A DNA stretch of 64,000 nucleotides, taken from the NCBI GenBank assembly GCA_000002445.1, contig AL929603.2, positions 32,001 to 96,000 of the forward strand. Reading direction: 5' to 3'. The DNA is from Trypanosoma brucei. Lineage: Eukaryota. Shown in pieces: positions 8,837 through 59,364 of the stretch. Numbering within the stretch: position 1 is the stretch's first letter; each line of letters starts with the position of its first letter. The position numbers were made by a program, and so were the translations under genes. Below the pieces are notes generated by a model that was not told the origin of the DNA, ran no database searches, and was given only the letters and a program-made list of their open reading frames with translations.

Positions 8837-10039
8837 AACACATATTTGGCATCAACTTCCATGGTTGCTACAATACTGTCTGCTGGAAGTACTTTTAGAA
8901 ACGCGGTGGAAACAGGGACCTCCACATCGCTTTTATTTTTAGACGCGTCTGGTGGACATAACTGATGTCGCTTCTGCCAACGTGACCATGAGGAAGAGAG
9001 ATATAATAATAATAATAACTTTTATTTATAAAAAATGTTTAGAAACAGATGGTGATGAACAATCCTTCTGACAGGACTGCAGTGGTGGGATGAGCACCTC
9101 AACATCAGCACCATTATGGGTGGCGTCCACCGTCCAAACAGTTGTGTACGGGACAGCGGTCACAAGGCGATTTTGTGTTATTTCAGCGAGAGGAGTAAAG
9201 AAATCCACACGGCACTGGTCGTCTTGATCTGCATTTTTTTCCAAAGATGACAGCAACACCACAAGCAGAGCTAAAGCATGCATAGGCGGAACAGCACCCT
9301 CGTCGATATGGAACAACACAGCAACTGTCACGCTCTCATTTCCTTTAGCGCGTGCATCAACTACTCATGTTACATACACTACCTGTAGAGCCACCTTCAG
9401 ACACATTAATATATCAATGTATTTAAAATAAAGTAAAAAAAAAAAGAAAATAGAAAAGAAAAGAAGTGAAGAGGACTTCACTGCATTTTCACGGCATACA
9501 ACGGCGAAATCGTTATTTTCGTTGTTGTTTTCTCTCCCTCCATCTCTTTTGTTATCGCCAAATAACAAAAGGAACCATGAATATTATCACAATTACTGCG
9601 CGTTACAGTTTGGTGTCACATTTTATTTTTAAATCCCCATGTGAGGATGCGCAATTTAGTGTACAGATAAATTTCACCCGATTCATCATTCTTCATGCAG
9701 GAAAGATGTATCAAAAAAAAAGTAAAAAATAAAAAAAAGAGAAATCACACTTTATACTATTTCTATCATTGGAATCCCATGAAATCAAGCGAAAGACACG
9801 TACTTATTCCCATTCCTTGAAGTTCTTGAAGTAAAATCTTGAACACATTGGGGGAATCCACATGTGAGACGGGTATTTTTGGCATTACATTATGAACAAT
9901 ACATGTCCTCTTCTCACCATTTATAACCCACACGAGCAGCATCAAATATAAATTGTGAAGAGGTATGAGATCACAAGGAGCTCGCTCTCATTGAGAAGGT
10001 TGGATGCGTCATATATATATATAATCATGTAATCCCTTT

Positions 10040-11830
10040 TCATTTCAACAATACGCAAACCTCCACTGCGGAATCGACTTTGAATGAGTTGACCTCGTCA
10101 GCACGAAACGGGGCCCGCCCAGTGGCATGAACATTAATCTTATCAGTAAACATGTGTTTGAGGTGTTGGTAATAAATGGGGTCAAAGAAAACATAAGTGC
10201 GTATCATCTTCCCCGTTATGCCCGAGTGGAAAATATACATCATCTCCGTGAAGATAATTGTATCCATGTTGTATCAATTCCTCATCCAGCTCTTCATCCT
10301 TATCGGTACCCAAAGATAGTGCCATCGCCTAACTTTTCCGTGAATGCACTCACACCTTTGAGCTAACAAGTTCCAGCAACTTTCCAACTGTCATACGGCT
10401 CGGGAATCCATGAGAATTTATGATCATATCTGTGCAAATGCCTTTACTCATTGAAGGGCATGTTAATACACCATCAGTCATGAGATCCACTACTCCCTCC
10501 AGCCCGTGCCGTGAGGAAAACTTATTTCAGACCTCGGGACCGCGAACTTCTCTCGTAGCAACTTTAACTTTATTGTTCTACATCCATTGATATATCCGAG
10601 TCACTGGAAGGTGAGAGATGACCACATTTGGTTCACAACAGCAGGCTGAGGGTATTTATTATATTCAAGAAAATTAGGTCTTGTTTTCATGGAAGGCACG
10701 GGAGGGTATTTGTTTACTAAAATATCAAACTGACAAACAGCCGCACCTTTACTACTGGCAATACCATCAATATTAAAGGCATTGTGTCTCGCAACATTCC
10801 AATCTGTTGGAAGAATTATATCATACATACTCACCGTTGGGAAGTCTTTCCAGTTCCATCTCATGCTTGCAGAAAACAACATAGCACCCATAGCCACAAT
10901 TGAGCGAACTGCGGTTGTGTACACCTTTGCGTCTTCAATATCGTAACCTCTATAGCTCATAATGCATACCATTGTATTAATTCCCGCATCTAATATTTTG
11001 TAGTTGCTTAGGTTCATAGCCTTCGTCCAGCAAAGGGATCGTTGAGAGTAAGCACTCAACATAAGTACTGTGTCCATTTATAATGTACTGAATATACGCA
11101 ATGGTTCCAACAGCTTGCTTGCCAATGGCTGACTGTAATGTGTTTCGTGCAAATTGATTGTGATGTGGAAAGGAAAATAATGCTAGCGACAACTCCAAGT
11201 GAGTCTCGTGTACTGCTCAATGTCTTTGTGGTGAACTGCTATAAGACAGACATTCGCTTCGTCATATAAGTCAATGAATTCCACAACAAACCTTCAGCTA
11301 AAATATCGTTAATCGATCACTTACTTGAACTCAAGTTATCCAGGTGTTAAGAAATTACAGCGTGTTTACCGTCGCTAACGAAAACATACAACCTCACGAT
11401 CCTTCTGCCAACACAAACAATTTGAACACTCTTCTGACGGTCATTTATCGCAATTGAAACGTGTGGATGCAAGCGGCCTGTGTTCCTCAGGGTTCGTAAT
11501 ACATCCCGACACAAACGGCTCATGTATCGATAAACGCACATCAGCACTTCATTGAGGAAAACTGTGTAGTATTTAAGAAATTCGTTAAGGCTGATATAAT
11601 CTATTTCCTCCACTCCAATATTGTACGCATCCGCATGTAAACAAACAAATTATCCATGTTGAGTGTTACCTGACTAAGAATAGCAAAATTATTAACCAAA
11701 CAGCAACAACTTTCACCCTCTGGGGTATTGCAAGGAGGGATATACACCATTCCCCATTGACTTGAATAGAGAAATAATGATCCGCACATGTGGGTCAATA
11801 CACGAAGTCATGGTCACTCCACTGCTGCCG
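10040..11830 (-). pseudogene. Unidentified degenerate, fragmented ORF cluster (pseudogene X, copy 1) in the 3' flank of RHS-a
   Basis: Minus-strand ORF fragments of 65, 88, 73, 158 and 75 aa lie collinearly in shifting frames. The same string recurs at 25401-27200 with extra frameshifts. No motif I can assign. Tested mentally against P-loop, RT and VSG-like composition; none fit. Confidence 0.35.
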
Positions 11831-12936
11831 TTACATATGATCACTGCATGGTTTTCGTATCAATGTTGATGATGATATGGGATTTGCTGCTGGAGGCAAC
11901 CAGAAACATAAGTTTAAGGTTCCCACGTGTGGAGAGAGGCCCAACTGCCAACCCTCAAGCAGGATAACAGAAGTGATTATAAGTAAAGAGAAGACAACAT
12001 ATCATAGCATGTTTACCCACCGACACATAATTGAAGAAAGAAAGAGATAGAAAGAGAGGAAAATAGAAACAATCACGTCACCAGCTGCGTGTCTGCGAAG
12101 AGCATCATCAAGAGCTGCTCCATAACTGCAACCATAACTAACATGTATAATATAATTATAACAGCTCGTATATAAAACAGCACATCCAGTAATTGCTTCT
12201 AATGTTTGCATATTTCGCTCCGTCACAATCTCTCTCCCATGACACCTACTAGAAATACAACTCAGAGGAGTTATAGTTTAGGCATGTTTCCAATACGCTC
12301 TCTCCACCAAGGATGGCGAAGAAGCAAAAAGTACTATTACATTTTTGTTCTTTTTATCATTGGCCTATAGATCCCTATCTCTACACGGATGTAAAATTTA
12401 GATTGTATAAATGAAAAGAAGATGTGAAGAGTTAGTGTAGTATAATCCAATCCTATAGTTTGTAATAGCACAAATGAAAACAAAACGTCACAATGTTTTC
12501 TTACGTCTTTCGATAACATTATTTCTGTCTTTCTTTGTGACCCTTAAGATTACGATGTGGCTTAACTCCAGTTATGCGTTAGCCTATAAAATACTGCACT
12601 CCTTCTACTTCCTCCACTACGTTGTCGTCTCGCCACGTTTCCTTGGAAACTTCATTACATTCATACCATGGCCTCCTTGCTGCACCCAAAAGAAAAAGCA
12701 GCTACACCTCCTTGCCCGCTGTGAGGTTACTGAATATACTTCGGACGTCACTGATTATGTGCACCTCTGTGTTACTCTTGTTTTGACTGCAGTCCGCTGA
12801 ACTTGGTTTCCTTTCAAACTGCCACACCCCAAGCGCTGCCCACTGCCGAGGAGATTGAACCGCATATATTCACCTCCTTCCACAGCGTCCGTTGCGTGTC
12901 AAACAACAGCGACTGGCCTTACTCCAGCTATTGGGT

Positions 12937-14994
12937 TCACCTTCGCTTTGCTTTCATCGCTCGCCTTCCCTGTGCCTTTTTTGCTTCCTGAAGATCTACC
13001 ATCAGATGAGCATTCATTTCGTCCCCAAACGTTACCTGGAATTGTTCAATCGTTTCCCAAAATGTTTGAAGTTGTTTCGCCTTCCTGGCAGGGATAACTT
13101 TGTCGACGTTAGCCTCACATTTTTGCCAATTGGTAATCACACCGCCATTAACTCCATTCATGTATATCATCTCCCAAGCCATGTTACCCGAAAACGTGTT
13201 CCAGTCCGAAAAATATCCTTTAATTCTCTCCGTGAACGCATTCAACTTTGTCGCAGTGGTGGAGTGACAGCCCGACTTGGTCACGTGTAAAAGGACAAGT
13301 GTCTTTGGTTTTGGCGCTTTTTTCGCTTGCCTTCCAGGCGACATCGTGAAGCGCCCCTCAACGAAAAAAAAGCCATCCACCAAGGGTTCATAGGCTGTGG
13401 CGGGAGTGTAGAGCACCATGTATTCGCAGCGTTCAATTGGGTTCTGCCTGGCTGCTGGTAAGACTTCCCATCCAGTGAGGCACAACTGCTGAGGAGTCAT
13501 GCTACTCAGTATACTTTGTTTTCCCCTCAGCTTCTCAGGCGGATGGAGGTGTCTCAAGTTCTTTGCCATCATCTCGAGAACTCGAGGATTGAGCACCGCA
13601 AACAACGCATGGCTTTCAAATGAAATGAAAGCGGCACTTCTGTTTCTCATCATGAGCTGGGACTCTGCTACTTTTCGCGCAGTAATGCCAAGCACCGCCC
13701 AAAGTAGCAAGGTCCTTATGTGCCCGGAAAGCTCTTTGCTGCGATATGAATCTCCGGAAACTCCATTTCCACGCGAACGGACTATCTGTACCATCTGGTA
13801 CGACACCTCTTCAGTTTGCCAGTTCATTGATGACCTAAAAAGATCCTCGCAGCCATTTTTATCATTAGCATCGAGGCCTCTTATTTTTTTTGCCACCGCC
13901 TCCATTCGCCCGCCGTGCCCCACAGCGTCGTAAACGGCACGAGGCACCGGGCCTGCCACGGCAATACGCTGCTTTACAGTTTCCCATTCGTCCTTTAGTC
14001 CTCCTCTTAACTCTTGTTTCGCCGTGTTGGATACCTTTTTATCTAATGCTACTGATAAATTCTTCCATGCCACAAACGCCTTTATGTCACGCACATCATC
14101 GCAGTTTATAATAATATGGCGGCTTCCCATGTCCTTTTCCCACTCCTCGTAATGTACCGTATCGGGGGAAGTGAGGACAGTTACACCCCAACCCAAATGG
14201 CACAGCTCATCAGGCGGTATAAGTAAGCTCTTACCGATGTCGACAATGATGTGACCTCTTTTTTTTCTTATTGTTTTTATGAAGGTAACGGCGGAATCGG
14301 TGCTTCTGTCTTCCTCAACCCTCCCCTCTTCTCCGGGTTTCTTGTTATATATTAGGTAAGCGATTTTACCCACGAAATATGCAACAACATCAAGCATTCC
14401 TTCATGGAAGTGAAGCAGTGAATGAAGCAAAAATGATCCAAGGCCACATGATTTACCAATACCAGGTGTACCAATAACAATATGTATCGGTGAATCCTCA
14501 GCTTTTTCTACCCAACATGCTCTCAGCCCTTTTTCGACTTTATACCACACGCGCATAATTTCACGACGGATGTATACATGTTTAAATTTTTCGTTGCACC
14601 TCTCAGTGTGGCCCAATGCAAACCTGTTGTATGGCCAACCCTTCTCCGAAGTGAGAACGAAAATCTCCAAACCATCGGGTCTCTCCTCAATCTCTGCATC
14701 AACATTCGCAGGGTCAGGAGTTATATCAACCTCCGCTTCGGTCCATATGCGCTGTGGTTTTCCATCGAACACTTTCATTCCAAGTGGATCTTCATCATAA
14801 CCCGACATCACATAACTCCATTTCGCATTATAAATGGAATCGTATAATTTCTCTTCGAGAGATTTGCCCTCTCCGGTTTCTGATGGGTTCTCGTTTTTTC
14901 GGCCGGCTTGTCTCTTCATCGGGCGGTACGCACCATTCAACCATCCATTTAAAATATTCCGAGTATCTCCCACACAACCACCATTCTGATTCAT
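12937..14994 (-). CDS. Retrotransposon hot spot (RHS) protein, a/c subtype. Short N-terminal variant (685 aa) with an intact ORF.
   Basis: Real ATG (ttcat on plus strand at 14992-14994). Carries the P-loop IVIGTPGIGKSCGLGSFLL and the conserved core YDSIYNAKWSYVMSGY ... IINCDDVRD ... DGFFFVEG. Its 5' flank (14995-15440) is near-identical to that of RHS-c (30837-31285). It lacks about 170 N-terminal residues that RHS-c has. Confidence 0.85.
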   Translation of the reverse strand: MNQNGGCVGDTRNILNGWLNGAYRPMKRQAGRKNENPSETGEGKSLEEKLYDSIYNAKWSYVMSGYDEDPLGMKVFDGKPQRIWTEAEVDITPDPANVDAEIEERPDGLEIFVLTSEKGWPYNRFALGHTERCNEKFKHVYIRREIMRVWYKVEKGLRACWVEKAEDSPIHIVIGTPGIGKSCGLGSFLLHSLLHFHEGMLDVVAYFVGKIAYLIYNKKPGEEGRVEEDRSTDSAVTFIKTIRKKRGHIIVDIGKSLLIPPDELCHLGWGVTVLTSPDTVHYEEWEKDMGSRHIIINCDDVRDIKAFVAWKNLSVALDKKVSNTAKQELRGGLKDEWETVKQRIAVAGPVPRAVYDAVGHGGRMEAVAKKIRGLDANDKNGCEDLFRSSMNWQTEEVSYQMVQIVRSRGNGVSGDSYRSKELSGHIRTLLLWAVLGITARKVAESQLMMRNRSAAFISFESHALFAVLNPRVLEMMAKNLRHLHPPEKLRGKQSILSSMTPQQLCLTGWEVLPAARQNPIERCEYMVLYTPATAYEPLVDGFFFVEGRFTMSPGRQAKKAPKPKTLVLLHVTKSGCHSTTATKLNAFTERIKGYFSDWNTFSGNMAWEMIYMNGVNGGVITNWQKCEANVDKVIPARKAKQLQTFWETIEQFQVTFGDEMNAHLMVDLQEAKKAQGRRAMKAKRR

Positions 14995-15439
14995 TTCACT
15001 CTCCGAATAATAATCTTAATTGAGTGTGTTGTGTTATTCCTTTCTTTGTAATATAAATTAAGAAAAGAATTAAGATGAGGGAATTTAAAATGGATACGCT
15101 TCTAAACCAAATCAAATATACAATCAATGAATATTAGGTATTAATATGGAAGATGGAAACTATTTATTGAAATTAAGATTCGGTTCAAATCTTATCATGT
15201 GTTAAGAACTCACAGCAACTTAAGCACAAATAAGGTATGACAGTATGAATAAACATTTCTGTTGAGAGGAAAACTCAAACAACAATTCCCAGTTACTTCA
15301 CACAATCATTTCAGAAAAATTAATATACTTACATATATATTTATAGAAAAGCAAAAACAAATAAATAAATGTGGCATTGCCATGAAAAACAGCATATAAT
15401 AGGTTTATTGATAAATCATGCAAAACGTAGAATACTCGG

Positions 15440-18430
15440 TTAAAGGTGCTCACGTGCATAATGATGGCGCTTCACATTGAAAAATAATACAAGCAACGAT
15501 CAGAACTTGCGTATAATCTCATATGACCCGTCACTCGAAATGACACGTTGCTGTGACCAATTAATTTTGCAACAACAATTTTTATGAATACTCTCACACT
15601 CCGAATCAGTACACAGTGTGCAAATGAGAGTACGAGATATCAAAAAAACGATAATAATCGCCGTAAAAAGTAAAACCAACAAAAATAAAATCTTATACAT
15701 CAAAGAGTAACCTCTCTCACCTGACGAACAAGTGCTGCTCACTTTCTTTATTCTTTATTTAAGTGATCCTGTGTTTATTTTTCCTGCAGCCATGGAACCA
15801 TGAATCAAAGAAATATATATATTAAGGCATGAAAGGTATTAGTTTTTGTTTTTGGTATTGGAGCACCTCGCCATGCGTCTGCTTTTGCTCCTTGGTGAAA
15901 CTCAAAAGGAACGAAAGGCTCACGGAATGGAACAAATATATTTGTGGGAATAATAATTCAATATTAGGCCTCTTTTGAGGAGTGTGCTAAGTGGAATAAT
16001 GGTGAAAAAGAAGTATTGAAAATTTATGCCACATGGACAAATGCTTTACAATATTTTCTCGCTGTCTGAAAAATATGGAATATATGGAATATATAAGGAA
16101 CCAGAAACATAGGGAATATATGAAGTATAAGAAAATATATCAAATATAAGAAAATATATGATATATTCTGAAGTGCCGGATGTGTTTGTGCGTGTCTTTG
16201 TATGTGTTCTCTGCTTTATATATCACTAAATGTTTTACACAATTCATTTTACTTTGCGTATGCTAATCGCTTGTTTCTCCCTGTATAAATTAGTGGAAAT
16301 ATCCATTAGAGAAATAATAATTTACTTTTTTTCTTTTCCCTTCTCTTCCATTCCCGCTAATGTTTCACCCGCCTATTTTCATTCCTTATAAATACTGTAA
16401 ATTTCTTTTTGTTACTGTAACTATTTCCAAAAAAAAAAAATGTAAGACACTTTAAGCATTACATATCATAATATTTCTAAACTCCTCTTTTGTTATGTTA
16501 AGCTACTAATATTTTTATTTCCCATTCATTTTATTCAGTGGAACATACAAAACCCCTTCAAAAGTCCTTCCTTGGTTTTTTCTTCAACATTATAATATAG
16601 CTTGTGGAATATACAAATATATAATAACCATAAATGTGTTATACATCTTCACAACATCAGAAGCTATACAACAGAATTATGTTCTTCAAGAAGCAGTGGT
16701 TGTGTTTCCTTTTATTTTATCTCATAGTCAAACTAATTAATTAATTACTAATAACTTCCTCCAAAGATATTGCTTCCACTTTCTTGGATTACTCAGCAGC
16801 GTAACACCGGAGTCTTGAAATGAAGAGTCGCAGTTCAAAGAATACAAAACAGGAAACAGAGACTCGCACCTTCACAATTGGTTGCATTTGAATACATCAA
16901 ACGCATTTATACACTTGCATTCCTAGTTTCTTTTTGGGGGGGTGGAGGGTAAATGCAAAATGTATCAAGTTGACGAGTAGCAGAAATACAACACTTGATA
17001 TAATTTCACTTACATATAAGCTTTCTTTTCCCACTTTATTTCAATTCATAATATTTTGATAGCAATGTAATGCAGCATTCAGCTATAAACATTTTAACCA
17101 TAAATATAGTAACTAATGTGTGAATGGTAACCCATTGCGATACATTCCATATGGAACAATACCACATTGTTAAATATACGCATTTAATTAAAACTATAGC
17201 ACTAAATTGAAAATTAAAAAATTAAAAGAGAAAAAGATATGAATTATCAAAAGAGGCATATTCTTCACTAACATGCACTTGTTTCAATATAATCATAATT
17301 TGAAATTAATTTAAATGATAAGTGGCCCAATATCCTGAAATGACACAATAACAATGATTTCATTATAGCAACTGTAAAATAATGATATGCAATAAAATAA
17401 ATAATATAAATAAATTAAAATACAGCAAGCAGTGCAGAATATATTCTATTGCTATATATAAACATTTGCCAACAGATGAATACCTTTACTCATTGGGAGA
17501 AAATAATTAAATTCAAACTTCCTATGATTCTGCCAGTGTTTGTCGGCTACATGTGGGACTCAAAAAAACAAAAGTTTATTTTAAATAAACATGAAAAAAA
17601 GAAAAACTTCGCATGAAACCATAAGGGCACCCCTGTGAGTTATGTGCTACTGTCAAACATAGTTAACTTCACAGCCCTCAAGAAAGAGAGAAATAAATAA
17701 AAGTAAAATTCCAGGTAAAAAATAAAATAAAAATTAAGGAAATATAACATAATTATGCTTAACTAACTGTAACGTGAGGAATGTAAAAATAACAAAATGT
17801 TACTCAAAATTTAATGTTATCAATGTTTTCCTTCACAAACAAAAACTGTCACATCTCAATGTGTTCTTTCAAATTAATGTAACGGAACCAGATATGTTTG
17901 TATAATATTCTACAATGTCATTTGGCATTGTCCGATGCTCACTCAAAAAAAAACTTATTCGTTTTGTTGCGATGTAGCTATTGACAGTGTTGTGCTCTTT
18001 TTCTTTTTTTTTATTTTTTTTTAACATACCGCTCCGCACTTCCGTAATCCCCTCAATATTCCTGCAGTTCCCATCATAAAAGATACAAAAGAAATCCATC
18101 AAAATAAAGTAACTGGAGTCCAAGATGCTGTAGATCGCAATGTATTTATTTTGAATAATGGAATCCTGTGATATCAGAGACAATCATCTGCAATGAATAA
18201 ACTGAAACATTCATTGACTCATGCCACTAAAATAATAATTAAATTGTTAAACACATATTCCCATCGTGTGTTAAGTAATTCAAACAATTCTGTGACCACA
18301 TGAAATACTCGACGAAAAAGGAAACGTATACAATGCATAAGCCATTAGTAAAGTATAAATACAGTTTTTGGTATCGAATCCATCATATGTTACAAAGTTG
18401 CATTTCATTAACAAACAAGAGCACAATTTA
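15440..18430. other. AT-rich unique spacer, about 3 kb, with no credible ORF, between duplication D copy 1 and the RHS-b 3' end
   Basis: Low-complexity AT-rich sequence with short internal repeats (16080-16170 is a gaatatatg-like motif). No paralogue elsewhere in the window. Confidence 0.5.
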
Positions 18431-20205
18431 ACTCAACATCATATTTCGAATCATCAGTGATAGAGCTTGGCAACTGTATGATTCGATTCCACCAACATCT
18501 GCCTTCACTCTTACAACCTTTACCAACTTGTCCGTAACTTCATTGTTCTTCCAGGCAGCCGTATGCTCAATAATATCATTATAGGAATATTCACCCGACT
18601 TCTTCATAGTTTCCAACGCATCATGAACTCTTTTCAGACGCCATTCATAACAGCTTAAACCAAATATATATAACGAGGCAAAAGCCCAATTGAATTAATA
18701 CGTCCCTCCACTATTCTCCACTCATCTTCCATTTCCTTCCTCAATTCGTATCTTCTTCTGTTGGATACCTTTTCCCTTGTATGTATTGACAGTTTTTTCC
18801 ATGCCACAAATGCCTTCATGTCACGCACATCATCACAGTTTATAATAATTTGGCGGCCTCCCGTATTTGTAGTCCAGTTACCAAAGTGGGAACTATTCGG
18901 GGAAGTGAAAATAGTTACACTCCAAACATCAGAGGGAAGTTGAGTGTAAAGCTGCTGCATTGCATACCTTATGTCCATAATAATGTGTCCTCTGTTTTCA
19001 AATTTCATTTTATTTATGGCGTTGACCGCAGCTCTCAAATCTTCGTACCGCACAACCCTCCCTCTTTCATCACCCTTTCTGTTATATATTAAGTAGGCGA
19101 TCGTGTCTGTGAAATATGCAACAACATCAAGCATTCCTTCATGGAAGTGAAGCAACGAATGAAGCAAAAATGATCCAAGGCCACATGATTTACCAATACC
19201 AGGTGTACCAATAACAATATGTATCGGTGGTCTGTGAGCTGTCTTTTCCACCCACCATGTTTTCAGATCTTTTTCGACTTTATACCACACGCGCACAATT
19301 TCACGACGGATGTATACGTGCTGAAATACTACTTTGCGCCCCGTAGTGTAATCCAATGCAAACCTGTTGTATGGCCAACCCTTCTCCGAAGTGAGAACGA
19401 AAATCTCCAAACCATCGGGTCTCTCCTCAATCTCTGCATCAACATTGGTAGGATCAGGAGTTATATCCACCTCCGCTTCGGTCCAAATGCTCTGTGGTCT
19501 TCCATCGAACACTTTCATTCCAAGTGGCTCTCTACGATAACCCGACATCACATAACTCCATTTCGCATTATAAATGGAATCATATAATCCTTTCAGTTCG
19601 ACAGCACCACCAGCTGTTTGGGCAGCTCGCTTTTCCGCTCTCTTGGCGGCCGTCACCGCTCCATCCAACCTTCCCCTCGCCATGGGACCAACAAATTCCC
19701 TTATTTCCCCTCTCCCCTTCTCCTCCCACTGACTGAGGTAGTAAATTTCTTTTTCGTCAAGGTAGTCTACCTTCTCAGACAGATCAATAGCTGTCTTCAC
19801 TGTTTTAAACTCATCAGTGCCTTGTATATCCTCAAGAATCTCAGCATCAACAATATATCTTCTGGGATTCTTAACAAACAAAAACATGGCCACATTCTCT
19901 GTGTTATACGTGTTTGAGAAGTATTGATTCAAAAGGTCATGCAATTTCATATTACGCAGAACCTCATACCGTTGCAGCAGCGCATCTTCCAGCAGCACAT
20001 CCCTCACCTTACTATCCATAGTCCAGTTGGGCCCCCCTTCAGTTCTCTGCCGTATTTGTGGAGGCTGAGCGGCAGCAGCAGCAGCAGGAGGAGGAGGCGG
20101 TACATTTTCATCCCGCGGTCTCCTCACGGCTGCTCCAAAATTACCTGCCACTTGTTGGTTTGCATTATTTCCTTGTGGAGCTGCGGGACTATTTGCTCTT
20201 GACAT
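18428..20205 (-). pseudogene. RHS pseudogene (RHS-b). It is 3'-truncated, frameshifted and mosaic.
   Basis: A 516-aa ORF (18655-20205) starts MSRANSPAAPQ, identical to the RHS-d/e/f N-terminus, then switches to the a/c-type core (LKGLYDSIYNAKWSYVMSGY ... IVIGTPGIGKSCGLGSFLLHSLLHFHEG). It ends prematurely. A 62-aa fragment in another frame (18428-18616) continues RHS homology. Homology is lost at about 18430, where AT-rich unique DNA begins. Confidence 0.8.
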
Positions 20206-22395
20206 AACTCTTTTAATATTATTAACTTAACTTCCTTTCCTTTCCTTTTTTCTCTGAAATTATAAAAAACTGAAGTAAAATAATAGATAAGGAAACAATA
20301 GCGGGTGAACAAAGTAACACAATATCAAATGTAATAGAGCGCGTTAATGTTTACTCACTATTGTTTGTATAATATGATATCATAATGTATTTGGTATTGA
20401 GAAGAACAATTTCAAAATATAGCAGCTGTAAATAAATATTTCCCTTGCTTCATTATTATGTGCTAAATGTAATATATTCCTGTATCATTCTTTTTAAACC
20501 ATGAATAATATGGAAACAAAAAATATTACTGCCTCATATACCTGCATCAACACTTCGTATATATAATCAATATTAAAAGAGAATCAAATTCTATCAATTA
20601 AAATCAAGTAAAACAATAAACAAAAATATATATGGATATTAATGAAACGAAGAAAAAGAGTATCGGAACAACACATAGATATATACACACAGAACTGCAC
20701 AACTGTAAAAATGCTCCTTTATATATCCTCCCCATTTTTACAATACGTAACGTTCACTCGCATTGAATAAATTTATTGAAAATATAAATCACTTATCCCC
20801 TCCCCCGTGTATTCACTTACTTCCAAAGGAGAATATTAAATAATGTCTGTAGGACAGGTAAAAAAAAACTGATAGTCTTTTTGCATCAGATAACCAGAGA
20901 GTATTTCTGTTTACTTTCATAATAAATAAAAACATCATTTTGCCTTCAGTTAAAATAAAATTTAATTACTTGCCTCCTCATTGTTCACAACTATCAACAA
21001 CTAATTCAGCGACACACATTCATATGTATCTGATGTGCCATCGTTGTTTGATGAATTCACACATCTTCCATGATGGTGATGATACAACATATTGTAAATC
21101 ATTGGAATAAAATTAATACAATTAATTGAGGAAACCGTAAAAGATTATCATAACATATCTTTTATTTTCCCTTCCTTTCATTTACACAAATTAAATATGT
21201 AATGATACAATTCACTTTCAGTACGTGTCCACACTTATTGTATCATTATTGTAAGTTATTTTTTGCTCATATACACGAAGCTATTGGAACAACAAAAAAA
21301 TAAAACAACTCATTGAAACAACTTGAAAAAATATATAACAAATAAAGGTAATAGAGAGAATGAGCGTGAACAGACAGATAATAAAATGAAACACGTCTCG
21401 TACTTTCCTTCTAAATATTCAATAGTTGGCGGATTACAAATAAAAACAATTACACATTATAGAAAGGAAGGGATATAATTACATTATACACCTGCATGTG
21501 GATATGTAACAGTAAGTCATAGTAGAAATAAATTGGCTAAACACAATAGTTATGGAAGATAAAATAATTCAAAATATCAATAATATTATTCTATCAACAT
21601 TCCCTTCCTTCCCCATTAAGTTTCCAAATGGTTTCAAATAATAATTCACATAATTCCATACATATGTTACGATGGGCATTGCATGCAGTACAATTTAAAG
21701 GAAGTGAAACTCATATAACATTTTCAAAAAAAGGCTTTGAATGGTTGTTTGCTACCATCAATTACATTTCCAATGCCTAATTACACTTTTATATGCGTGA
21801 ATGAAGTTACTGATGATAACTTTGACATGCTCGAGAATTCATAACACAAAGCAGCAGCTGCATGCAATAAAAAATAAAAATATAAATAACATCCGAATTC
21901 ATTTACTGACAGATGAGTGCAATTCATTCACCCAAACTTCATAGCTGTAAACATAAACTCGCTGCTGCCAATAGGAAATGATCCCGCATAAATATTGAGC
22001 ATCTGAAAATGATAGCAACGGGTTTCCATTTTTGAGATATATGCATAAACTACATGAGGTATATGAAGCCATATTGGTAAAGTGTCACTACGCATGTTGC
22101 AATTTACTATCAGAAGTGTCTGCCTTATTTTATTTCTTTTGTTACTGTAACTCATGAGTATCATTCATTATTCTTTACAATACAACTGTAAGTCATTTTG
22201 CATTTTTACATATTTCCTTATTCCCTCATACTGGAAGTATTCCACATATAAGATTCCTCAATATCGTTCACAAAATAAAAATAATTTCATTTCCTTCTGT
22301 ATTCAGTTTCTCGTGTAGCAGTGTGTACACTAATCATCCATAAAGTTTTTAATTTGCCAAATACATCATTACGAAACTATTTTCCACAAATAAAC
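20206..22395. repeat. Conserved RHS 5'-flank element (U), copy 1. The shared sequence extends to about 24580.
   Basis: The same about 2.2 kb lies immediately upstream of the ATG of RHS-b, RHS-d (40406-42585), RHS-e (45916-48075) and RHS-f (56356-58555). A partial copy sits at 31400-32165. Landmark strings: aataataattcacataat..catacatatgtta.gatggg..ttgcatgcagtacaatttaaagg, and ccacaaataaacaaacaaac. Confidence 0.85.
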
Positions 22396-25300
22396 AAACA
22401 AACAAATCATTGGGACAATATCTTTGAGATATTTCCTTCACTATATTTGCAGTTCAGTAGTAATTAAAATACACTTTTCTGTATAATTCAACACATGGTG
22501 GAATTGCAAAGAAATGTGATGGTACTTATAATCCATAAGTTCTCAATTTTCCTCATACGGTCTCCTTTCATGCCTTTACATCCTTATATAATTCACAGAG
22601 AATTACTGCAATTTCTTTCATATGCTTTCAGGATTCCATATGTCACAACACAAATAATATATACATTTACACATATATATAATTTGGACATAATATTGCT
22701 TAACATATAAATTATCACAAACCTATGACTTTACACTCCTCCTAAGAATAATAGAATCAAATTATTTCTATTTTGCATCATTACATGAAGCTTCGGAAAA
22801 GGAAAGAAAAAGAATCAAACAAAAGGTAATGTAAACAACACAGTTTCATAATACAGATTATAACTTGTTTGTGAATTTCAGATGCAAACACAAAATGTTC
22901 AAACAGGGAAACAGTAAAGGACGGTACTGGTGATGTAAGCACAAATTAACCAAAAATAGAAACATAAATAAAACTTAAAACTTGTAAAAACACAAATATA
23001 TATGATACAAATATTTACCACATATTATAATTCGCCACCCTCACACTTGAATTATAAAGAGGACATAACACACATATGTGGTAAAACTAATACAACTCGA
23101 ATATACATATGTGACATCTTCTTAACATAATCATTCCAATATTTACTCAGTATGTATGTCTGTGTATCTGTGTGTGTGTAGAAATGATGAAATGTAATTG
23201 TAACAAATCAGGCACAACACAAACAAAAAATATGCATTATATTATTCTCTAAAAAGGAGAAGAATAAAAATCAAGAAATATTACGCAGCTTTTCTCACAA
23301 GTAATTTTGTTTCTGTATATATACATATATACATATATAACACGACAGCTGGCAACATTAAACTCTCAATTCCATAATATCTGACACCTGAAGTGATAAT
23401 TAGCAGCGGATGCCTTTAACAAAAAACAACAGAAATAACAACATCAAAGCATGTTTTGAAAGCTTAAATAAACTTCCTCATGGATAAACCATTTGTACAA
23501 AGTTTGAGTGCCAAGTAGGAGGAACAAAGAAAAATAAAAAAAGAAGAATTAAATGGTAAAACAATTGCGTGTGATATAACTAAAGGATTTGTTAGGCACT
23601 ACACTCATTAAACTCCAGTTTCATAAAAATACTGCAAGGCATAATATTTACTGCTTTACCGGTTATGTGCCTCCAGCAAGCAATAATAAATACTTCGAGT
23701 ATTATTCGATTTCTGATGCTATGAAGTGTGTAATAAATTAGTGCATGAGTAAAATATTCAAATGTTGGTGTTCACTTCAAATTATAACCTCTGCACTATG
23801 AATGTCTCTCGATGTTTATAATTTGAGAGAGCAAAAGTGACGGCGCTACTATTTATTTCTTCCAGTTCATGAATATATAAATATATTTATACATATATAA
23901 TCAGATGTGACATGCAAAAGCGTTTAAACATCAGGCATGAACATCTTTCCATCCATTTAAAGCAAGACGATACAATAAGGTAAGTTTAGGATGAAGTGAA
24001 GGTATCATAATGTTAATATCTTCCTTCAAGCGGAGGATTCAATTTAAATAGGCGTACTTCACAAACAATAGTAAAATAACTGAGAAAACTTATATCACTT
24101 AATCGTTGTTTCCTTCAATTCTTATTTTGAATCGCTCTGTACCGTCACACCTTCAATAAAGTATATAGTGACGCATTTCACACATCCTCCCTAAGCCATC
24201 TCTCATAGTCATTAGCTCTCAACAGCAATAATAACAAATAATGAATAGTTTAGTTCTTACCTTCCCTTTTTTACTATCGACAAGAAAGATATACGAAATA
24301 ATTATCATACTGAATAAACAGTAGGCGTTCCTCATCATCCTACGCAAAATATGAATTGAAACGATAATTTACTAACGAAGCGGAAGTGTCTGAAAGCGTC
24401 TTTAACTCGTCTCCTGTGCGGGGCGAAGAGGGTTGTGTTGTGTGGGCTTTCTAAAAATTTCACTCTCTTGCAGACAGCTGCGTAAATAAACGGGGAGTAC
24501 AGGTGTGTTTAGAGAAAGATAACCGTACAAAATAATACTCTGCACTCCTAAGTCCAAAACCATTCATAATGCAGGCTTTCAAAATACACGACATCATCTC
24601 AACAAATTGTAATTATTTTTTTTGTATAATGTCCTCCAGAAGACAGAACAACAGATGACACAGTGAAATAACACATGACAAACAAGGAATATAACCGCAC
24701 ATCCTCAGCAGTAAATGTTTCAGTTTCTCCTTTTAAAAAAAAAAAGAAAAATAAAACAGTTTCACACGTGTGGCCCAAAAGCTGCATCAGCCAATACGAT
24801 ATCTTGACAGCTTGTCACGCAGTCTTGCCTCAAGAAGAAAATAAATCATTCATCTCTGCTTTCCCTTAATTGATAAATGAGATCCCATGCTGTGTTAACT
24901 CACGTCTCCATTCAAAAAGTTGACTCAACGTTGTGACGAGGCAGTGACCAAAAACAATCCAAATGCAATTCCAAATTTCTTCATATTACGTTTTCAGTTT
25001 TATTACACATTTCCCCAACCATTCCAAGTACTAACAGGAATAATTTGGTTCTATAATAATGCATGTGTTTTCTACAGCTCTTTCATTTTGTTATGATCCG
25101 CACAAAAATTATATATGTGGTTGTTGATTCGTCCTGTCAATCAAAGTAACAATCATAATAATTAATTTTATCGTTTCTTCATTTTTCTATTAGCACATGT
25201 GCACCTTGGTGAGATCACTTTCACTCATTTGCACTTATTGGTCAACACCATTTAGTTCGTCATTCAACACACTCCCTTACATGTCCTCTTCTCACCATTT

Positions 25301-25400
25301 ATAACCCACACGAGCAGCATCAAATATAAATTGTGAAGAGGTATGAGATCACAAGGAGCTCGCTCTCATTGAGAAGGTTGGATGCGTCATATATATATAA

Positions 25401-27200
25401 TCATGTAATCCCTTTCCATTTCAACAATACGCAAACCTCAACTGCGGAATCGACTTTGAATGAGTTGACCTCGTCAGCATGAAACGGAGTCCGCCCAGTG
25501 GCATGAACATTAATCTTATCAGTAAACATGTGTTTGAGGTGTTGGTAATAAATGGGGTCAAAGAAAACATAAGTGCGTATCATCTTCCCCGTTATGCCCG
25601 AGTGGAAAATATACATCATCTCCGTGAAGATAATTGTATCCATGTTGTATCAATTCCTCATCCAGCTCTTCATCCTTATCGGTACCCAAAGGCATTGCCA
25701 TCGCCTAACTTTTTCCGTGAATGCACTCACACCTTTAAGCTAACGAGTTCCAGCAACTTTCCATCTGTCATACGGCTCGGGAATCCATGAGAATTTATGA
25801 TCATATCTGGGCAAATGCCTTTACTCATTGAAGGGCATGTTAACACACCATCAGTCATGAGATCCACTACTCCCTCCAGCCGGTGCCGTGAGGAAAACTT
25901 ATTTCAGACCTCGGGACCGCGAACTTCTCTCGTAGCAACTTTAACTTTATTGTTCTACATCCATTGATATATCCGAGTCACTGGAAGGTGAGAGATGACC
26001 ACATTTGGTCCACAACAGCTGGCTGAGGGTATTTATTATATTCAAGAAAATTAGGTATTGTTTCCTTGAAAGGCACGGGAGTTTATTTGTTTACAAAAAT
26101 ATCAAACTGACGAATAACCGCACCTTTACTACTGGCAATACCATCAATATTAAAGGCATTGTGTCTCGCAACATTTCAATCTGTTGGAAGAATTATATCA
26201 TACATACTCACCGTTGGGAAGTCTTTCCAGTTTCATTTCATGCTTACAAAAAACAACACAACAACCGTAGCCACAATTGAGCGAACTGCGGTTGTACACA
26301 TTTGCGTCTTCAATATTGTAACCTCTATAGCTCATAATGCATACCATCGTATTAATTCCTGCGCCTAATATTTCGTAGTTGCTTAGGTTCATAGCCTTCG
26401 TCCGGCAAAGGGATAGTTGAGAGTAAGCACTCAACATAAGTACTGTGTCCATTTCTAATGTACTGAATATACGCAATGGTTCCAACAGCTTGCTTGCCCG
26501 TGGCTGACTGTAATGTGTTTCGTGCAAATTGATTGTGATGTGGAAAGGAGAATAATGCTAGCGACAACTCCAAGTGAGTCTCGTGTACTGCTCAATGTCT
26601 TTGTGGTGAACTGCTAAAAGACAGTCATTCGCTTCATCATATAAGTCAATGAATTCCACAACAAACCTTCAGCTAAAATATCGTTAATCGAGCACTTGCC
26701 TGAACTCAAGTTATCCAGGCGTTGAGAAATTACAGCGTGTTTCCCGTCGCTAACGAAAACGTACAACCTCACGATCCTTCCGCCAACAAAACAATTTGAA
26801 CACTCTTCTGACGGTCATTTATCGCAATTGAAACGTGTGGATGCAAGCGGCCTGACCTCCTCAGGGTTCGTAATACATCCCGACACAAACGGCTCATGTA
26901 TCGATAAACGCACATCAGCACTTCATTGAGGAAAACTGTGTAGTATTTAAGAAATTCGTTAGGGCTGATATAATCTATTTCCTCCACTCCAATATTGTAC
27001 GCATCCGCATGTAAACAAACAAATTATCCATGTCTAGTGTTACCTGACTAAGAATAGCAAAATTATTAACCAAACAGCAACAACTTTTACCCTCTGGGGT
27101 ATCGCAAGGAGGGATATACACCATTCCCCATTGACTTGAATAGAGAAATAATGATCCGCACATGTGGGTCAATACACGAAGTCATGACCACTCCACTGCT
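25401..27200 (-). pseudogene. Unidentified degenerate ORF cluster (pseudogene X, copy 2)
   Basis: Collinear with 10040-11830. The 109-aa and 73-aa ORFs match the 158-aa and 73-aa ORFs of copy 1, with an additional frameshift. Confidence 0.35.
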
Positions 27201-27420
27201 GCCGTTACATATGATCACTGCATGGTTTTTATATCAATGTTGATGATGATATGGGATTTGCTGCTGGAGGCAACCAGAAACATAAGTTTAAGGTTCCCAC
27301 GTGTGGAGAGAGGCCCAACTGCCAACCCTCAACCAGGATAACAGAAGTGATTATAAGGACAGAGAAGACAACATATCATAGCATGTTTACCCACCGACAC
27401 ATAATTGAAGAAAGAAAGAG

Positions 27421-27443
27421 AGGGAGAGAGAGAGAGAGAGAGG
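27421..27443. repeat. (GA)n microsatellite
   Basis: agggagagagagagagagagagg. Absent from the paralogous position in copy 1 (about 12050), which reads agaaagagatagaaagagagg. Confidence 0.8.
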
Positions 27444-28265
27444 AAAATGGACACAATCACGTCACCAGCTGCGTGTCTGCGAAGAACACCATCAAGAGCT
27501 GCTCCATAACTGCAACCATAACTAACATGTATAATATAATTATAACAGCTCGTATATGAAACAGCACATCCAGTAACTGCTTCTAATGTTTGCATATTTC
27601 ACTCCGTCACAATCTCTCTCCCATGACACCTACTGGAAACACAACTCAGAGGAGTTATAGTTGAGGCATGTTTCCAATACGCCCTCTCCACCACGGATGG
27701 CAAAGAAGCAAAAAGTACTATTACATTTTTGTTCCTTTTATCATTGGCCTATAGATCCCTATCTCTACACGGATGTAAAATTTAGATTGTATAAATGAAA
27801 AGAAGATGTGAAAAGTTAGTGTAGTATAATCCAATTCTTTAGTTAGTAACAGCACAAATGAAAACAAAACGTTACAATGTTTTCCTACGTCCGTCGATAA
27901 CATTATTTCTGTCTTTCTCTGTGCCCCTTAAGATTACGATGTGGCTTAACTCCAGTTACGCGTTAGCCGATAAAATACTACTTTTACTATTCCTTAGTCG
28001 TCTTCATTTCCACTTCCCTTCCCTCACCTCCGGCACTCAAGTGAATTATCACGTCCCTTTCCTTGCAGCAGCTGCGGAAGCTCATTACTGGTGGACAAAC
28101 AACACACTTGAAAAGGCGCAACGGGGCACTTCAAGCTGTGATCATAAACCAAACCAGGTACAAAAACGAACCCGCTCCCCCTAATGGTTGGTTCCCTCCT
28201 CTTTAAGCATTTGTCACTCTTAACAGCAACGCCGTGCACTGCTACAAAAAAACAATTACGCGTCT

Positions 28266-30836
28266 TCATCTCCTTCCACGTCGTCTCATTGCTACGTCAC
28301 CTCGCCCCTCCACAACCTCTTCACGAGCGCGACGCCTTCCCGCCAGTCCCATCAATCCCGGTGCATTTCGCATGCCAGATTCTCGGCGATATGCCCGAAT
28401 TAATTCCGCTTGCATCGTTTCCTTGAGTGTCACTTGGAATTGGTCGATGGATTCCCAAAATGTTTGCGGTCCCAGAGGACCTCCGTCCCCACCTCTAGCT
28501 CTATCGGGAGGTCCTTCGCAAAGTTGCCTGATGGTTATCGTGCCACCGTTAACCGAATTAATGTATATCATCTCCCAAACCATGTCGCGGGAAAACGCAC
28601 CCCAATCAGAAAAATATCTTGCCATGTTTTTTCGGAACTTCTGCACCTTATCCGTAGCGGTGGGGTGCCTGTCCGACTTGGTTACTTGTAAAAGCACAGC
28701 TATATTTGACGGGATCGGTGCCGCTGTTCCGTCACGGTTTCTCCTGAACCGCCCCTCAACGAAAAAAAAGCCATCCACCACGGGTTCATTACCTGTGGCA
28801 GGGAGGTAGAGAACCATGTATTCACAGCGTTCAATTGGTCGCTGTCTGGCCGCAGGTAAGGCCTTCTGCCCAATGAGTCTCAACTGCTGAGAAGCCATGT
28901 CGTTCAGTATGCTTCGACGGTCAGCTATTTCTCCGCCTCGTCGCAGGTATTTCAAGTTGTTTGCGATAACTTTAAAAACTCGAGGGAAAAGAAGCGAAAG
29001 CAACGCAAGCCTTTCAAAAGCGTTGGCCCCAACACACTCGTCTGATAATGTAATCTCCTTTGACGTCATCTCTACAATAAGAATGCCAAATAATGTGCAA
29101 ATCAACATATTCCCAATAGTGACAGAAAGCGATCTGCAACGATATGAATCGACATTGACAGTCCCAGAGCTTACCCGCACTATCTTCACCAATTTGTGCG
29201 TTACCACATCATTTTGCCAGCCCGCAGATTTTCCAATAATCTTACCATATTTCTTTCCGTTATCGCTATCGAGCTGCCTAGCTTCTTTACGCACACTTTC
29301 CAGTCGTTCGTGATACTCAGGGGCTGAGAAAACAAAACGAGGCAATGGACCAACCATGTCAATGCGCTCTTCCACAATTTTCCACTCCTTTTCAAGGTCT
29401 TCCTTCAACTGCTGCTTCGTTTTGTCGCGCGGCGCCTCCTCCGAAAGCACACACAGCTTTTTCCATGCCACAAATGCCTTCATGTCACGTACATCATCGC
29501 AGTTTATAATAACTCTGCGGCTTCTCTTGTCTTTTGCCCAGTGATGAAAATGGGCCTCATCCGGAGAAGTGAGGAGAGTTACACCCCAAGCGTAAACCGG
29601 CAGACCATCGGGTGGCGTCTGCGCATTTCTGCATATGTCAACAATGATGTGCCCTTTTTTTTTCTTGGATACTAACGCAGCTATTGCGTCAACGGCATCT
29701 TCCGGGAATTTATACCTCTCAACCCTCCCCTCTTCTCCGGGTTTCTTGTTATATATTAAATAGGCGATCCCGTCTGTGAAATATGCAACAACATCAAGCA
29801 TTCCATCATTGAAGTGAAGCAATGAATGAAGCAAAAATGATCCAACACCGTATGATTTACCAATACCAGGTGTACCAATAACAATATGTCTCGGTGTTAT
29901 CTCAGCTTTTTCCACCCACCTTCCTTGCAGCCCTCGTTGGATTATATACCACACGCGCATAATTTCACGACGGATATATACATGTTTAAAATTTTCCCCG
30001 CACATCTCAGTGTGGCCCAATGCAAACCTGTCGTATGGCCAACCTTCCTCCGAAGTGAGAACAAAAATCTCCAAACCATAAGGTCTCTCCGGCACTCGTG
30101 CATCAAGATTCGCAGGATCAGGATTTATATCCACCTCCGCTTCGGTCCATATGCGCTGTGGTTTTCCATCGAATACTCTCATTCCAAGTGGCTCTCTACG
30201 ATAACCCGACATCACATAACTCCATTTCGCATTATAAATGGAATCATACACTCCTTTAATTTCGACAGCACTAGCAGCTGTTTGGGCAGCTCGTTCCAAT
30301 GCTACATTGAGTGCATTATTCAGTAGCGCATTGACAACAATCCAAAGGCGCTCTCCATCTCTCAGTCCACGAATATCCGCCTGTAACCTGACCTTTGCTT
30401 CCTCATCTGCTTGTTGCCACTGCTGAAGATCCAATATTCCCTCATCCTCAAAGAAACCATAGACGCTGACAAAACGTTTGTACACTTTATACTCTGGTGT
30501 CGCGAATATTCGATTGAGCGCATTAACGTCATTAATATACTCTTCGCATCGTTGTACAAAGGCAAACATTGATGCTCTCAGGAGACGTTGATCCAAGTCC
30601 ATATCATCGAGTAAATTACGCCTCAAAAAATCATTTACACTCACATTTTCAGGATGAACCCGACCTTCCAGCAAAACTGCGTCAATGCGGCTAAAAAGTC
30701 TCCATTGTGGTTGGTTATTATTCTCCACTCGTTGCTGCACTGCTGGAGGTTCCGCATCGTTACGCGCAGCCTCCTCATTTTCTCGTCTCCTTCCCTCAAT
30801 GTCACCCCTTCCTTCAATAGGAAATTGTTGATTCAT
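28266..30836 (-). CDS. Retrotransposon hot spot (RHS) protein, a/c subtype, full length (856 aa), intact
   Basis: Real ATG (MNQQFPIEG). P-loop IVIGTPGIGKSYGVGSFLL. Carries the conserved RHS core and C-terminal DGFFFVEGRF block. Confidence 0.88.
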   Translation of the reverse strand: MNQQFPIEGRGDIEGRRRENEEAARNDAEPPAVQQRVENNNQPQWRLFSRIDAVLLEGRVHPENVSVNDFLRRNLLDDMDLDQRLLRASMFAFVQRCEEYINDVNALNRIFATPEYKVYKRFVSVYGFFEDEGILDLQQWQQADEEAKVRLQADIRGLRDGERLWIVVNALLNNALNVALERAAQTAASAVEIKGVYDSIYNAKWSYVMSGYRREPLGMRVFDGKPQRIWTEAEVDINPDPANLDARVPERPYGLEIFVLTSEEGWPYDRFALGHTEMCGENFKHVYIRREIMRVWYIIQRGLQGRWVEKAEITPRHIVIGTPGIGKSYGVGSFLLHSLLHFNDGMLDVVAYFTDGIAYLIYNKKPGEEGRVERYKFPEDAVDAIAALVSKKKKGHIIVDICRNAQTPPDGLPVYAWGVTLLTSPDEAHFHHWAKDKRSRRVIINCDDVRDMKAFVAWKKLCVLSEEAPRDKTKQQLKEDLEKEWKIVEERIDMVGPLPRFVFSAPEYHERLESVRKEARQLDSDNGKKYGKIIGKSAGWQNDVVTHKLVKIVRVSSGTVNVDSYRCRSLSVTIGNMLICTLFGILIVEMTSKEITLSDECVGANAFERLALLSLLFPRVFKVIANNLKYLRRGGEIADRRSILNDMASQQLRLIGQKALPAARQRPIERCEYMVLYLPATGNEPVVDGFFFVEGRFRRNRDGTAAPIPSNIAVLLQVTKSDRHPTATDKVQKFRKNMARYFSDWGAFSRDMVWEMIYINSVNGGTITIRQLCEGPPDRARGGDGGPLGPQTFWESIDQFQVTLKETMQAELIRAYRRESGMRNAPGLMGLAGRRRAREEVVEGRGDVAMRRRGRR

Positions 30837-31399
30837 TTCACTCTCTGAATAATAATCTTAATTGAGTGCGTTGTGTTATTTCCTTTCTTTGTAACATAAA
30901 TTTTAAAAAAGGGATAAAAGATGAGAGAATTTAAAATAGATACATTACTAAACCAAAGCAAATATAAAATCAATGAATATCAGGAATTAATATGGCAGGT
31001 GGAAACTATTTATTGAAATTAGGATTCAATACAAATCTTATCATGTGTTTAGAACTCACAGCAACTTAAGCACAAATAAGGTATGACAGTATGAATAAAC
31101 ATTTCTCTTGGGAGGAAAAACTCAAACAACAATTCCCATTCAGCTACTGCACACAATCATTCCAGAAAAAAAAAATATACTTATATATATATATTTATGA
31201 AAAAGCAAAAAAAAATGTGGCATTGCCATAAAAAACAGCATATAATAGGTTTAGTGATAAATCATGCAAAACGTAGAATACTCGGGTGCATACAGAAAAG
31301 TGCCTTACTTACCTTACAAAATTAAAAATATACCAAAAGTAAAAATAAATATAAAACATTATCTTCACAATTCAAACCAGACACGTATTAAGCAAGAGA

Positions 31400-43400: not shown

Positions 43401-43423
43401 ACATAACATGCAAAGATGTTGCA
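37904..43423. repeat. Segmental duplication, copy 1 (RHS-d + U + G-segment), near-identical to 53854-59364
   Basis: Direct comparison of long strings. For example, 40406-40560 equals 56356-56510 base for base. 42880-43420 is almost the same as 58820-59360. Confidence 0.85.
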
Positions 43424-59300: not shown

Positions 59301-59364
59301 CCTTTATAATTATTTCTGACTCCTCAATTCGTTGCAACATAACATAACATGCAAAGATGTTGCA

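Follow-up and report, generated by a model that had tools for sequence, protein, structure and literature searches.

Retrotransposon hot spot (RHS) genes of trypanosomes are assigned to subfamilies by their divergent C-termini, the N-terminal part being more conserved, and more than half of them are pseudogenes, as stated in those passages of PMC7563717 and PMC3683921 that cite Bringaud 2002. The origin of T. brucei RHS pseudogenes from recombination between RHS variants is attributed to Bringaud et al. 2002 in the corresponding passage of PMC7563717, and 78 of the 118 RHS genes of strain TREU927 are considered pseudogenes (PMC6393297). In T. cruzi, an analysis with RDP4 revealed 53 recombination events and mosaic RHS genes containing up to three foreign fragments (Genes 2020, PMC7563717). 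RHS proteins are nuclear and are not surface antigens (PMC6393297; PMC7563717); Tb927.2.1180 is named as an RHS3 gene, and an RHS small interfering RNA (siRNA) pool has been described (both PMC3683921). Here, the structure of RHS-b is analysed, a minus-strand gene in a 64,000-nt window of T. brucei DNA (contig AL929603.2, positions 32,001 to 96,000; all positions below are those of the window). The window covers the RHS gene cluster of a TREU927 chromosome that is probably chromosome 1. Mosaic RHS genes are already documented for the family, and RHS-b adds a further case, from a reference chromosome that is already published.

The mosaic RHS genes of T. cruzi resemble RHS-b in that they are put together from segments of different RHS groups, one to three per gene, and lie in subtelomeric clusters, with recombination in N-terminal, central and C-terminal coding regions (PMC7563717). 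That study differs from the present one in that RDP4 was applied to T. cruzi genes, whereas a breakpoint map of one T. brucei copy is given here. The structure of RHS-b is in line with expectation, as the subtelomeric RHS clusters of T. brucei are shaped by duplication and ectopic recombination, by the insertion of retroelements and by pseudogenisation. Mosaic VSG genes of the same organism reportedly arise by segmental gene conversion (Marcello & Barry 2007 and Hall et al. 2013, as cited in PMC7563717), and the VSG arrays are said to share with RHS genes the subtelomeric arrangement of paralogs, the many pseudogenes and the use of short homologous stretches as conversion boundaries. The VSG mosaics differ in being selected during infection for antigenic novelty, whereas RHS-b is known here from its sequence alone.

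RHS-b is very probably a full-length member of the RHS3 subfamily that has been inactivated by a 2-nt TA slippage and whose 5' third is a cassette circulating among subfamilies. In Pfam, the gene matches RHSP (PF07999; E = 3.4e-43, or 2.4e-58 with the frameshift repaired) together with RHS_N (PF20445; E = 5.7e-35) and DUF7578 (E = 2.6e-16), and it sits in a cluster of RHS genes and pseudogenes with ingi/RIME elements. Bacterial Rhs/YD-repeat proteins have only the acronym in common with it, and both Pfam and the homology search lead to the trypanosome retrotransposon hot spot family. The top database match of the 516-aa RHS-b open reading frame (ORF) is the T. brucei RHS3 protein Q8WPQ6 (UniProt, 576 aa), with 78% identity over the full length. 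The two have in common the domain order DUF7578, RHS_N and partial RHSP, a length of approximately 580-590 aa, the short C-terminus ...SLMIRNMM(L/M)S, and residues 278-591, which are 75-100% identical depending on the segment. RHS-b differs from Q8WPQ6 in the 2-nt frameshift, in residues ~110-200, which are RHS1-type, and in residues 1-253, which match the paralog P0002, whose own body is RHS4-type. The C-terminal residues 515-591 are 91% identical to Q8WPQ6 and only 21-35% identical to the RHS1, RHS2, RHS4 and RHS5 copies.

The first-pass annotation had treated RHS-b as a truncated copy, which is contradicted by the sequence downstream of the ORF. Searches with RHS3 proteins (tblastn) detect homology in two frames, 20205-18664 and 18670-18431, so that the RHS3 similarity runs past the ORF stop (18655-18657) and the second part is 91% identical to the last 80 residues of Q8WPQ6, ending at a TAA (18430-18428) that coincides with the left boundary given for the gene in that annotation. 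Around the lesion RHS-b reads CGT TAT ATA TAT TTG GTT TAA, whereas a sequence shorter by one TA would be needed to encode the ...R Y I F G L S... of the RHS3 proteins; the ORF thus ends in ..LLPRYIYLV and a stop, and the alternative frame gives YIFGLSCYEWRLKRVHDALETMKK... The reading frame is therefore not intact, the two extra nucleotides in the TA run creating the premature stop. No sequence has been lost relative to the intact RHS3 members, to whose last residue RHS-b aligns and whose stop codon lies at the same position. The repaired product has 591 aa (557-590 aa in RHS3 proteins) and, like them, is short and ends inside the RHSP domain, covering positions 1-251 of the 312-position RHSP profile (1-238 of 312 in P0001 and P0006). 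Because the RHS3 frame continues to the RHS3 stop, RHS-b has the normal short architecture of its subfamily and is not truncated. The RHS-b protein is absent from the protein database, in which the neighbouring proteins are present, and this absence is consistent with an annotation as a pseudogene.

The window holds seven RHS copies and one ingi-type ORF, and the Pfam domains DUF7578, RHS_N and the RHSP P-loop domain are found in all of its long minus-strand ORFs. ORFs a (12937-14994) and d2 (53854-56355) are 100% identical to TREU927 proteins annotated as RHS4 (P0017) and RHS1 (P0010), respectively, and ORF d (37904-40405) is 99.8% identical to P0010. Copy c is RHS5-like (96% to H25N7.12), and copies e and f are closest to P0027, which is taken as RHS2-like, so that both are taken as RHS2-like as well. 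The 5' half of copy f lies beyond the ingi element, outside the window.

Against these copies, RHS-b was mapped on the minus strand with a 60-nt sliding window and segment-wise alignments (Table 1). The nearest copy changes along the gene, and similarity is not uniform to any one subtype. By BLAST, 20800-19465 matches d/d2 at 86% and 20800-19540 matches e at 85%, while 19629-18789 and 19588-18759 match c and a, respectively, at 79-80%. Of the d/e/f-type character proposed for the 5' flank and the first 75 residues, a d/e-type character is retained for the flank and for the first ~60-65 residues (92% nt identity over 20205-20026) but does not extend over all 75. This type-I N-terminus is common to RHS1, RHS2, most RHS3 proteins, P0002 and P0007. 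Residues 61-109 contain a 15-nt insertion (ALLQR) that is lacking in d and e, and their protein identity is 98% to P0002, 80% to P0009, 72% to the RHS3 protein P0001, 58% to e and 42% to d. A patch in this segment, formerly called e-type, does match copy e (FSNTYNTENVAM in b, FSNTYDTENVAM in e) and shares its 9-nt indel state; however, the nucleotide identity of 20025-19876 to e is only 74%, and most of the segment past the first 42 nt is unalignable to d. Since Q8WPQ6 carries a counterpart of the patch, FSNTYDTQNVAM, the patch is usual RHS3-type sequence, in which an RHS1-type tract is embedded. That tract is the d-type patch of the first-pass annotation, and its assignment stands.

A 52-nt string at 19611-19662, quoted earlier as DNA shared on the d side of the switch, is indeed exact in d at 39814-39865 and has 2 mismatches in d2 (0 occurrences expected by chance). 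Because b, c and d agree exactly over the first 19 nt of this string (19611-19629, 30275-30293 and 39814-39832; 0 expected by chance), the switch from d-like to c-like sequence is placed at this island. The a/c-type character that had been proposed for everything from ~19600 onward holds for ~240 nt (19601-19366; 94.5% to c, then 81/81 to a) and for two conserved patches, 19211-19120 (97.8% to a) and 18857-18794 (91-92% to a/c), whereas the rest of 19365-18431 is RHS3-type. Outside the two patches, the nucleotide identity of 19365-18431 to a/c is 59-80%, and the protein identity from residue 278 on to a/c/d/e is only 21-66%. The body of RHS-b is thus RHS3 and not RHS4/RHS5, and the proposed parentage of d/e-type and a/c-type genes falls away. 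The parents were misassigned because only window paralogs had been compared and RHS3 is represented there by no copy other than RHS-b. Subtype assignment from the paralogs of one window alone can mislabel a gene, and the finding for RHS-b is mostly a correction.

The comparison was extended to the closest relatives in the genome. P0006, a 579-aa TREU927 RHS3 protein on chromosome 2, shows 97-100% identity to RHS-b over residues 278-514 and 87% over the last 77 residues; relative to P0001, protein identity from residue 278 on is 75-100%, segment by segment. Upstream, the closest relative is mostly P0002, an 837-aa protein encoded on the same chromosome as P0006 whose remainder is RHS4-type (80% to a): residues 61-160 and 201-277 of RHS-b are 96-100% identical to it (100% over residues 201-252), and residues 161-200 are 82% identical. 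Residues 81-150 are 100% identical to the RHS1 variant P0009. In the protein triplet b/P0002/P0006, 133 of the 138 informative sites through residue 253 are P0002-like, and 156 of 159 from residue 275 on are P0006-like (MaxChi, chi-square 265.7; 0/1000 permutations as high); over all protein triplets, chi-square ranges from 149 to 299, again with no permutation as high. These sequence comparisons point to residues 254-274 (nt 19446-19384) as the cleanest single breakpoint, with a P0002-like 5' module and the RHS3 body from residue 275, and this interval falls inside the stretch that is identical in nucleotides to RHS4 copy a. In the triplet b/d/Q8WPQ6, RHS-b sides with RHS3 at residues 73-109, with RHS1 at ~110-200 and once more with RHS3 from residue 209; the triplet b/d/P0001 likewise shows the RHS1-like tract (~110-200) between two RHS3-like parts. 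The bootstrap nearest neighbour is P0002 for residues 61-109 (100%), RHS1 (67%) or P0002 (25%) for residues 110-200, P0002 for residues 201-252 (99.5%) and RHS3 for residues 278-591 (100%). MaxChi and the bootstrap therefore both support a change of the nearest relative within the gene, as in a mosaic.

Table 1. Features of RHS-b and of the surrounding window.
Feature	Position	Strand	Basis or remark
Whole RHS-b, RHS3-subfamily (pseudo)gene	18428..20205	-	591 codons after removal of the 2-nt frameshift
Shared upstream flank, type U1, also upstream of other RHS genes of the cluster	20206..24581	-	Alignments include part of the b coding region
Type-I N-terminus, residues 1-60 (MSRANSPAAPQGNN...)	20026..20205	-	169/183 = 92.3% nt to both d and e
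RHS3/P0002/P0009-type segment, residues 61-109	19879..20025	-	Includes the former "e-type patch"
RHS1-type tract, residues 110-200	19606..19878	-	266/273 = 97.4% nt to d
19-nt island (CGAGCTGCCCAAACAGCTG, coding strand), RHS1-like/RHS5-like junction	19611..19629	-	Exact in b, c and d
Start of RHS_N domain, RHS5 (c)-like	19511..19601	-	86/91 = 94.5% to c, 88% to a, 83.5% to d
RHS4 (a)-identical stretch, holding the P0002-like to P0006-like change (19384-19446)	19366..19446	-	81/81 nt = a 14706-14626
RHS3-specific P-loop domain and short RHS3 C-terminus	18431..19365	-	Protein identity to P0006/P0001
Conserved patch: P-loop (GTPGIGKS) and empty ingi/RIME insertion hot spot (~19166-19170)	19120..19211	-	90/92 = 97.8% to a, 92.4% to c
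(TA)4 run with frameshift, two extra nt relative to the RHS3-protein frame (..LLPRYIFGLSCYEW..)	18665..18672	-	tblastn and sequence reading
TAA stop of the RHS3 reading frame	18428..18430	-	C-terminal alignment of P0001 and P0006 ends here
ingi-type non-LTR retrotransposon ORF (RT/RNase H/zinc finger)	61070-63964		Pfam

The description of RHS-b as a recombinational mosaic between subfamilies with identifiable junctions, already given in the first-pass annotation, is borne out by MaxChi, by the changes of nearest neighbour and by synonymous identity. In the shared segments, codons for identical amino acids are themselves identical in a proportion of 0.85-1.00 (b versus d, residues 101-200; b versus a/c, residues 201-380), compared with 0.2-0.4 in the non-shared comparisons. 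This near-identity at synonymous positions indicates recombination, since selection at the protein level alone would not keep it. An explanation without recombination, in which constraint acts unevenly along an anciently diverged gene and conserved motifs merely resemble other subfamilies, agrees with the position of some a/c-like patches on functional motifs (the P-loop and IINCDDVRDMKAFVAWK) but can practically be dismissed, as the nearest neighbour changes subfamily at near-100% identity over long segments, the identity reaches synonymous positions, and the informative sites are almost perfectly bipartite.

Among the proteins compared, exchange of N-terminal modules is family-wide across the RHS subfamilies. 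The d/c junction at ~19610 is not private to RHS-b, as P0002, on another chromosome, has the same N-terminal arrangement, and other RHS3 proteins likewise join a type-I N-terminus to an RHS_N domain of the 3/4/5 type. Among the RHS3 proteins, P0006 has an RHS5-type N-terminus (MNQQVPIEGRGD...), and P0001, P0003, P0004 and P0005 have type-I N-termini with differing internal patches. P0002 and P0007 carry type-I N-termini on RHS4-like and RHS5-like bodies, respectively. The subfamilies are defined by the C-terminus, yet in the present data the N-terminal modules cross between them.

The similarity of RHS-b to other members of the cluster extends far upstream of the coding region. Copy e together with its upstream flank (45253-50221) aligns to 19540-24581 at 91.6% identity, and copy d, again with the upstream flank, aligns to 19465-22407 at 90.5%. 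For c, the upstream flank aligns to 21640-24581 at 94.5% identity; up to 20800, the RHS-b flank is 90-98% identical to d and e in most 60-nt windows. Such multi-kilobase flanks, 90-95% identical among cluster members, are a substrate for ectopic pairing. The 5' flank of RHS4 copy a (15000-15439) is 87.6% identical to that of RHS5 copy c (30842-31285) and is unrelated to the b/d/e flank, which indicates two flank types that co-vary with the two types of N-terminal module.

As an alternative, RHS-b could be a recent private chimera made within the cluster by a crossover at ~19600 between a d/e-type (RHS1/2) and an a/c-type (RHS4/5) gene, followed by truncation. The window itself offers a sharp switch from d to c/a at 19602-19608, beside the 19-nt island of b, c and d, with 97.4% identity to d on one side and 94.5-100% identity to c/a on the other. 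Such an origin is nevertheless very unlikely: beyond 19366, the nucleotide identity to a/c is 59-80%, compared with a protein identity of 97-100% to the RHS3 protein P0006; the junction is also present in P0002 on another chromosome, and the architecture recurs in other RHS3 proteins; and RHS-b continues to the RHS3 stop codon.

Several points weigh against the interpretation of RHS-b as an RHS3 gene with a circulating 5' cassette. The gene could be an assembly product in which reads of several RHS paralogs were joined, given a highly repetitive cluster with 90-95% identical multi-kilobase flanks and a ~16-kb tandem duplication, and no database protein has the full RHS-b arrangement (best match 78%). 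An assembly artefact is very unlikely, however, as the independent paralogs P0002, P0009 and P0006 carry the same modules and the same junctions, the frame is kept across every junction apart from the one TA slippage, and neighbouring ORFs match annotated reference proteins exactly. The frameshift could be a sequencing error and not a pseudogenising mutation. Donor and recipient of the RHS-b segments are indistinguishable, the parents are named at the protein level, and the main breakpoint rests on the protein comparison with P0002 and P0006. The MaxChi statistics at the nucleotide level, which place the switch at 19608/19602 (d versus c) and 19589/19587 (d versus a) with chi-square values of 107-125 (0/2000 permutations as high), are inflated because a and c lack homology to b upstream of ~19630, and they reflect in part a domain boundary and not a dated crossover. 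More weight is accordingly placed on the protein triplets, which consist of true homologs, than on the nucleotide comparison of d with a/c.

The segment map, the breakpoints, the RHS3 identity and the frameshift of RHS-b are read from the sequence comparisons, whereas the way in which the segments were exchanged, and when, is inferred. Ectopic homologous recombination, either segmental gene conversion or unequal crossover, would take place among the paralogs of the subtelomeric RHS arrays, and the junctions lie in short, conserved nucleotide islands common to the subfamilies, in which the exchanges may resolve. RHS-b accordingly begins with the common N-terminus, which is followed by an RHS3/P0002-type segment, an RHS1-type tract, an RHS_N domain that is first RHS5-like and then RHS4-identical, and the RHS3 body. 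The junction at ~19610 probably predates RHS-b or reflects common descent with P0002-type genes. The latest distinguishable event may have placed a P0002-like 5' cassette (flank and residues 1-253) in front of an RHS3 body, or the reverse may have happened for P0002, and the slippage in the TA run would be the final step, which inactivates RHS-b. The breakpoint map is a worked example that opens no new question and could serve as a starting point for analysing recombination among the RHS genes of the whole T. brucei genome, as has been done in T. cruzi.

One of the conserved patches contains the insertion hot spot of the family. In RHS-b, as in RHS genes generally, only a few codons separate the ATP/GTP-binding motif from the ingi/RIME hot spot downstream of it; in RHS-b this hot spot is unoccupied. 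At the junction of the ingi 3' end with copy f (60798-61070), a run of ten A (~60801-60810) is followed directly by ...TTCTGCTCCAAAGG. As the RHS sequence that abuts the ingi poly(A) in f lies a few codons past the P-loop, the junction represents the occupied form of the family insertion hot spot, and the empty site of RHS-b (~19166-19170) aligns with this abutment. Among RHS3, RHS4 and RHS5 (19120-19211, a 14383-14474 and c 29787-29878), the patch is 92-98% identical in nucleotides, synonymous sites included, reaching ~98% between RHS3 and RHS4, and beside it the similarity drops to 80.5%/74.7% upstream and ~63-65% downstream. The patch may owe its conservation to recurrent gene conversion or to selection at the DNA level, for instance on a retroelement target. 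A broader proposal would be that the cross-subfamily islands (19611-19629, the GWPYNRF block and the P-loop/hot-spot patch) are conserved for more than protein function and are maintained as dedicated sites for recombination or retroelement targeting, and that RHS genes form a cassette-exchange system that deliberately reassorts the 5' flank and N-terminal modules onto different C-terminal bodies; this we regard as very improbable.

In the remainder of the cluster, the RHS1 and RHS2-like pair is present twice as a tandem duplication of ~16 kb (37904-46506 and 53854-60900, offset about 15,950 nt), in which d and d2 differ at 2 of 833 residues and the second RHS2-like copy (f) is interrupted by the ingi element. 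The first RHS2-like copy, e (43424-45915, minus strand), is also interrupted: its 706-aa ORF stops at 43795, and the C-terminus lies in another frame (tblastn, 43885-43427, 96% to residues 637-789 of P0027), which makes it a second frameshifted pseudogene of the cluster. Finally, a 2.7-kb block occurs in two copies of 95.6% identity, downstream of RHS4 copy a (9900-12595) and of RHS5 copy c (25278-27979). Both contain degenerate fragments of a gene for the second-largest subunit of RNA polymerase (10601-11077 and 26198-26527), to which Pfam assigns RNA_pol_Rpb2_6 with E = 4.5e-13 and 2.4e-15.

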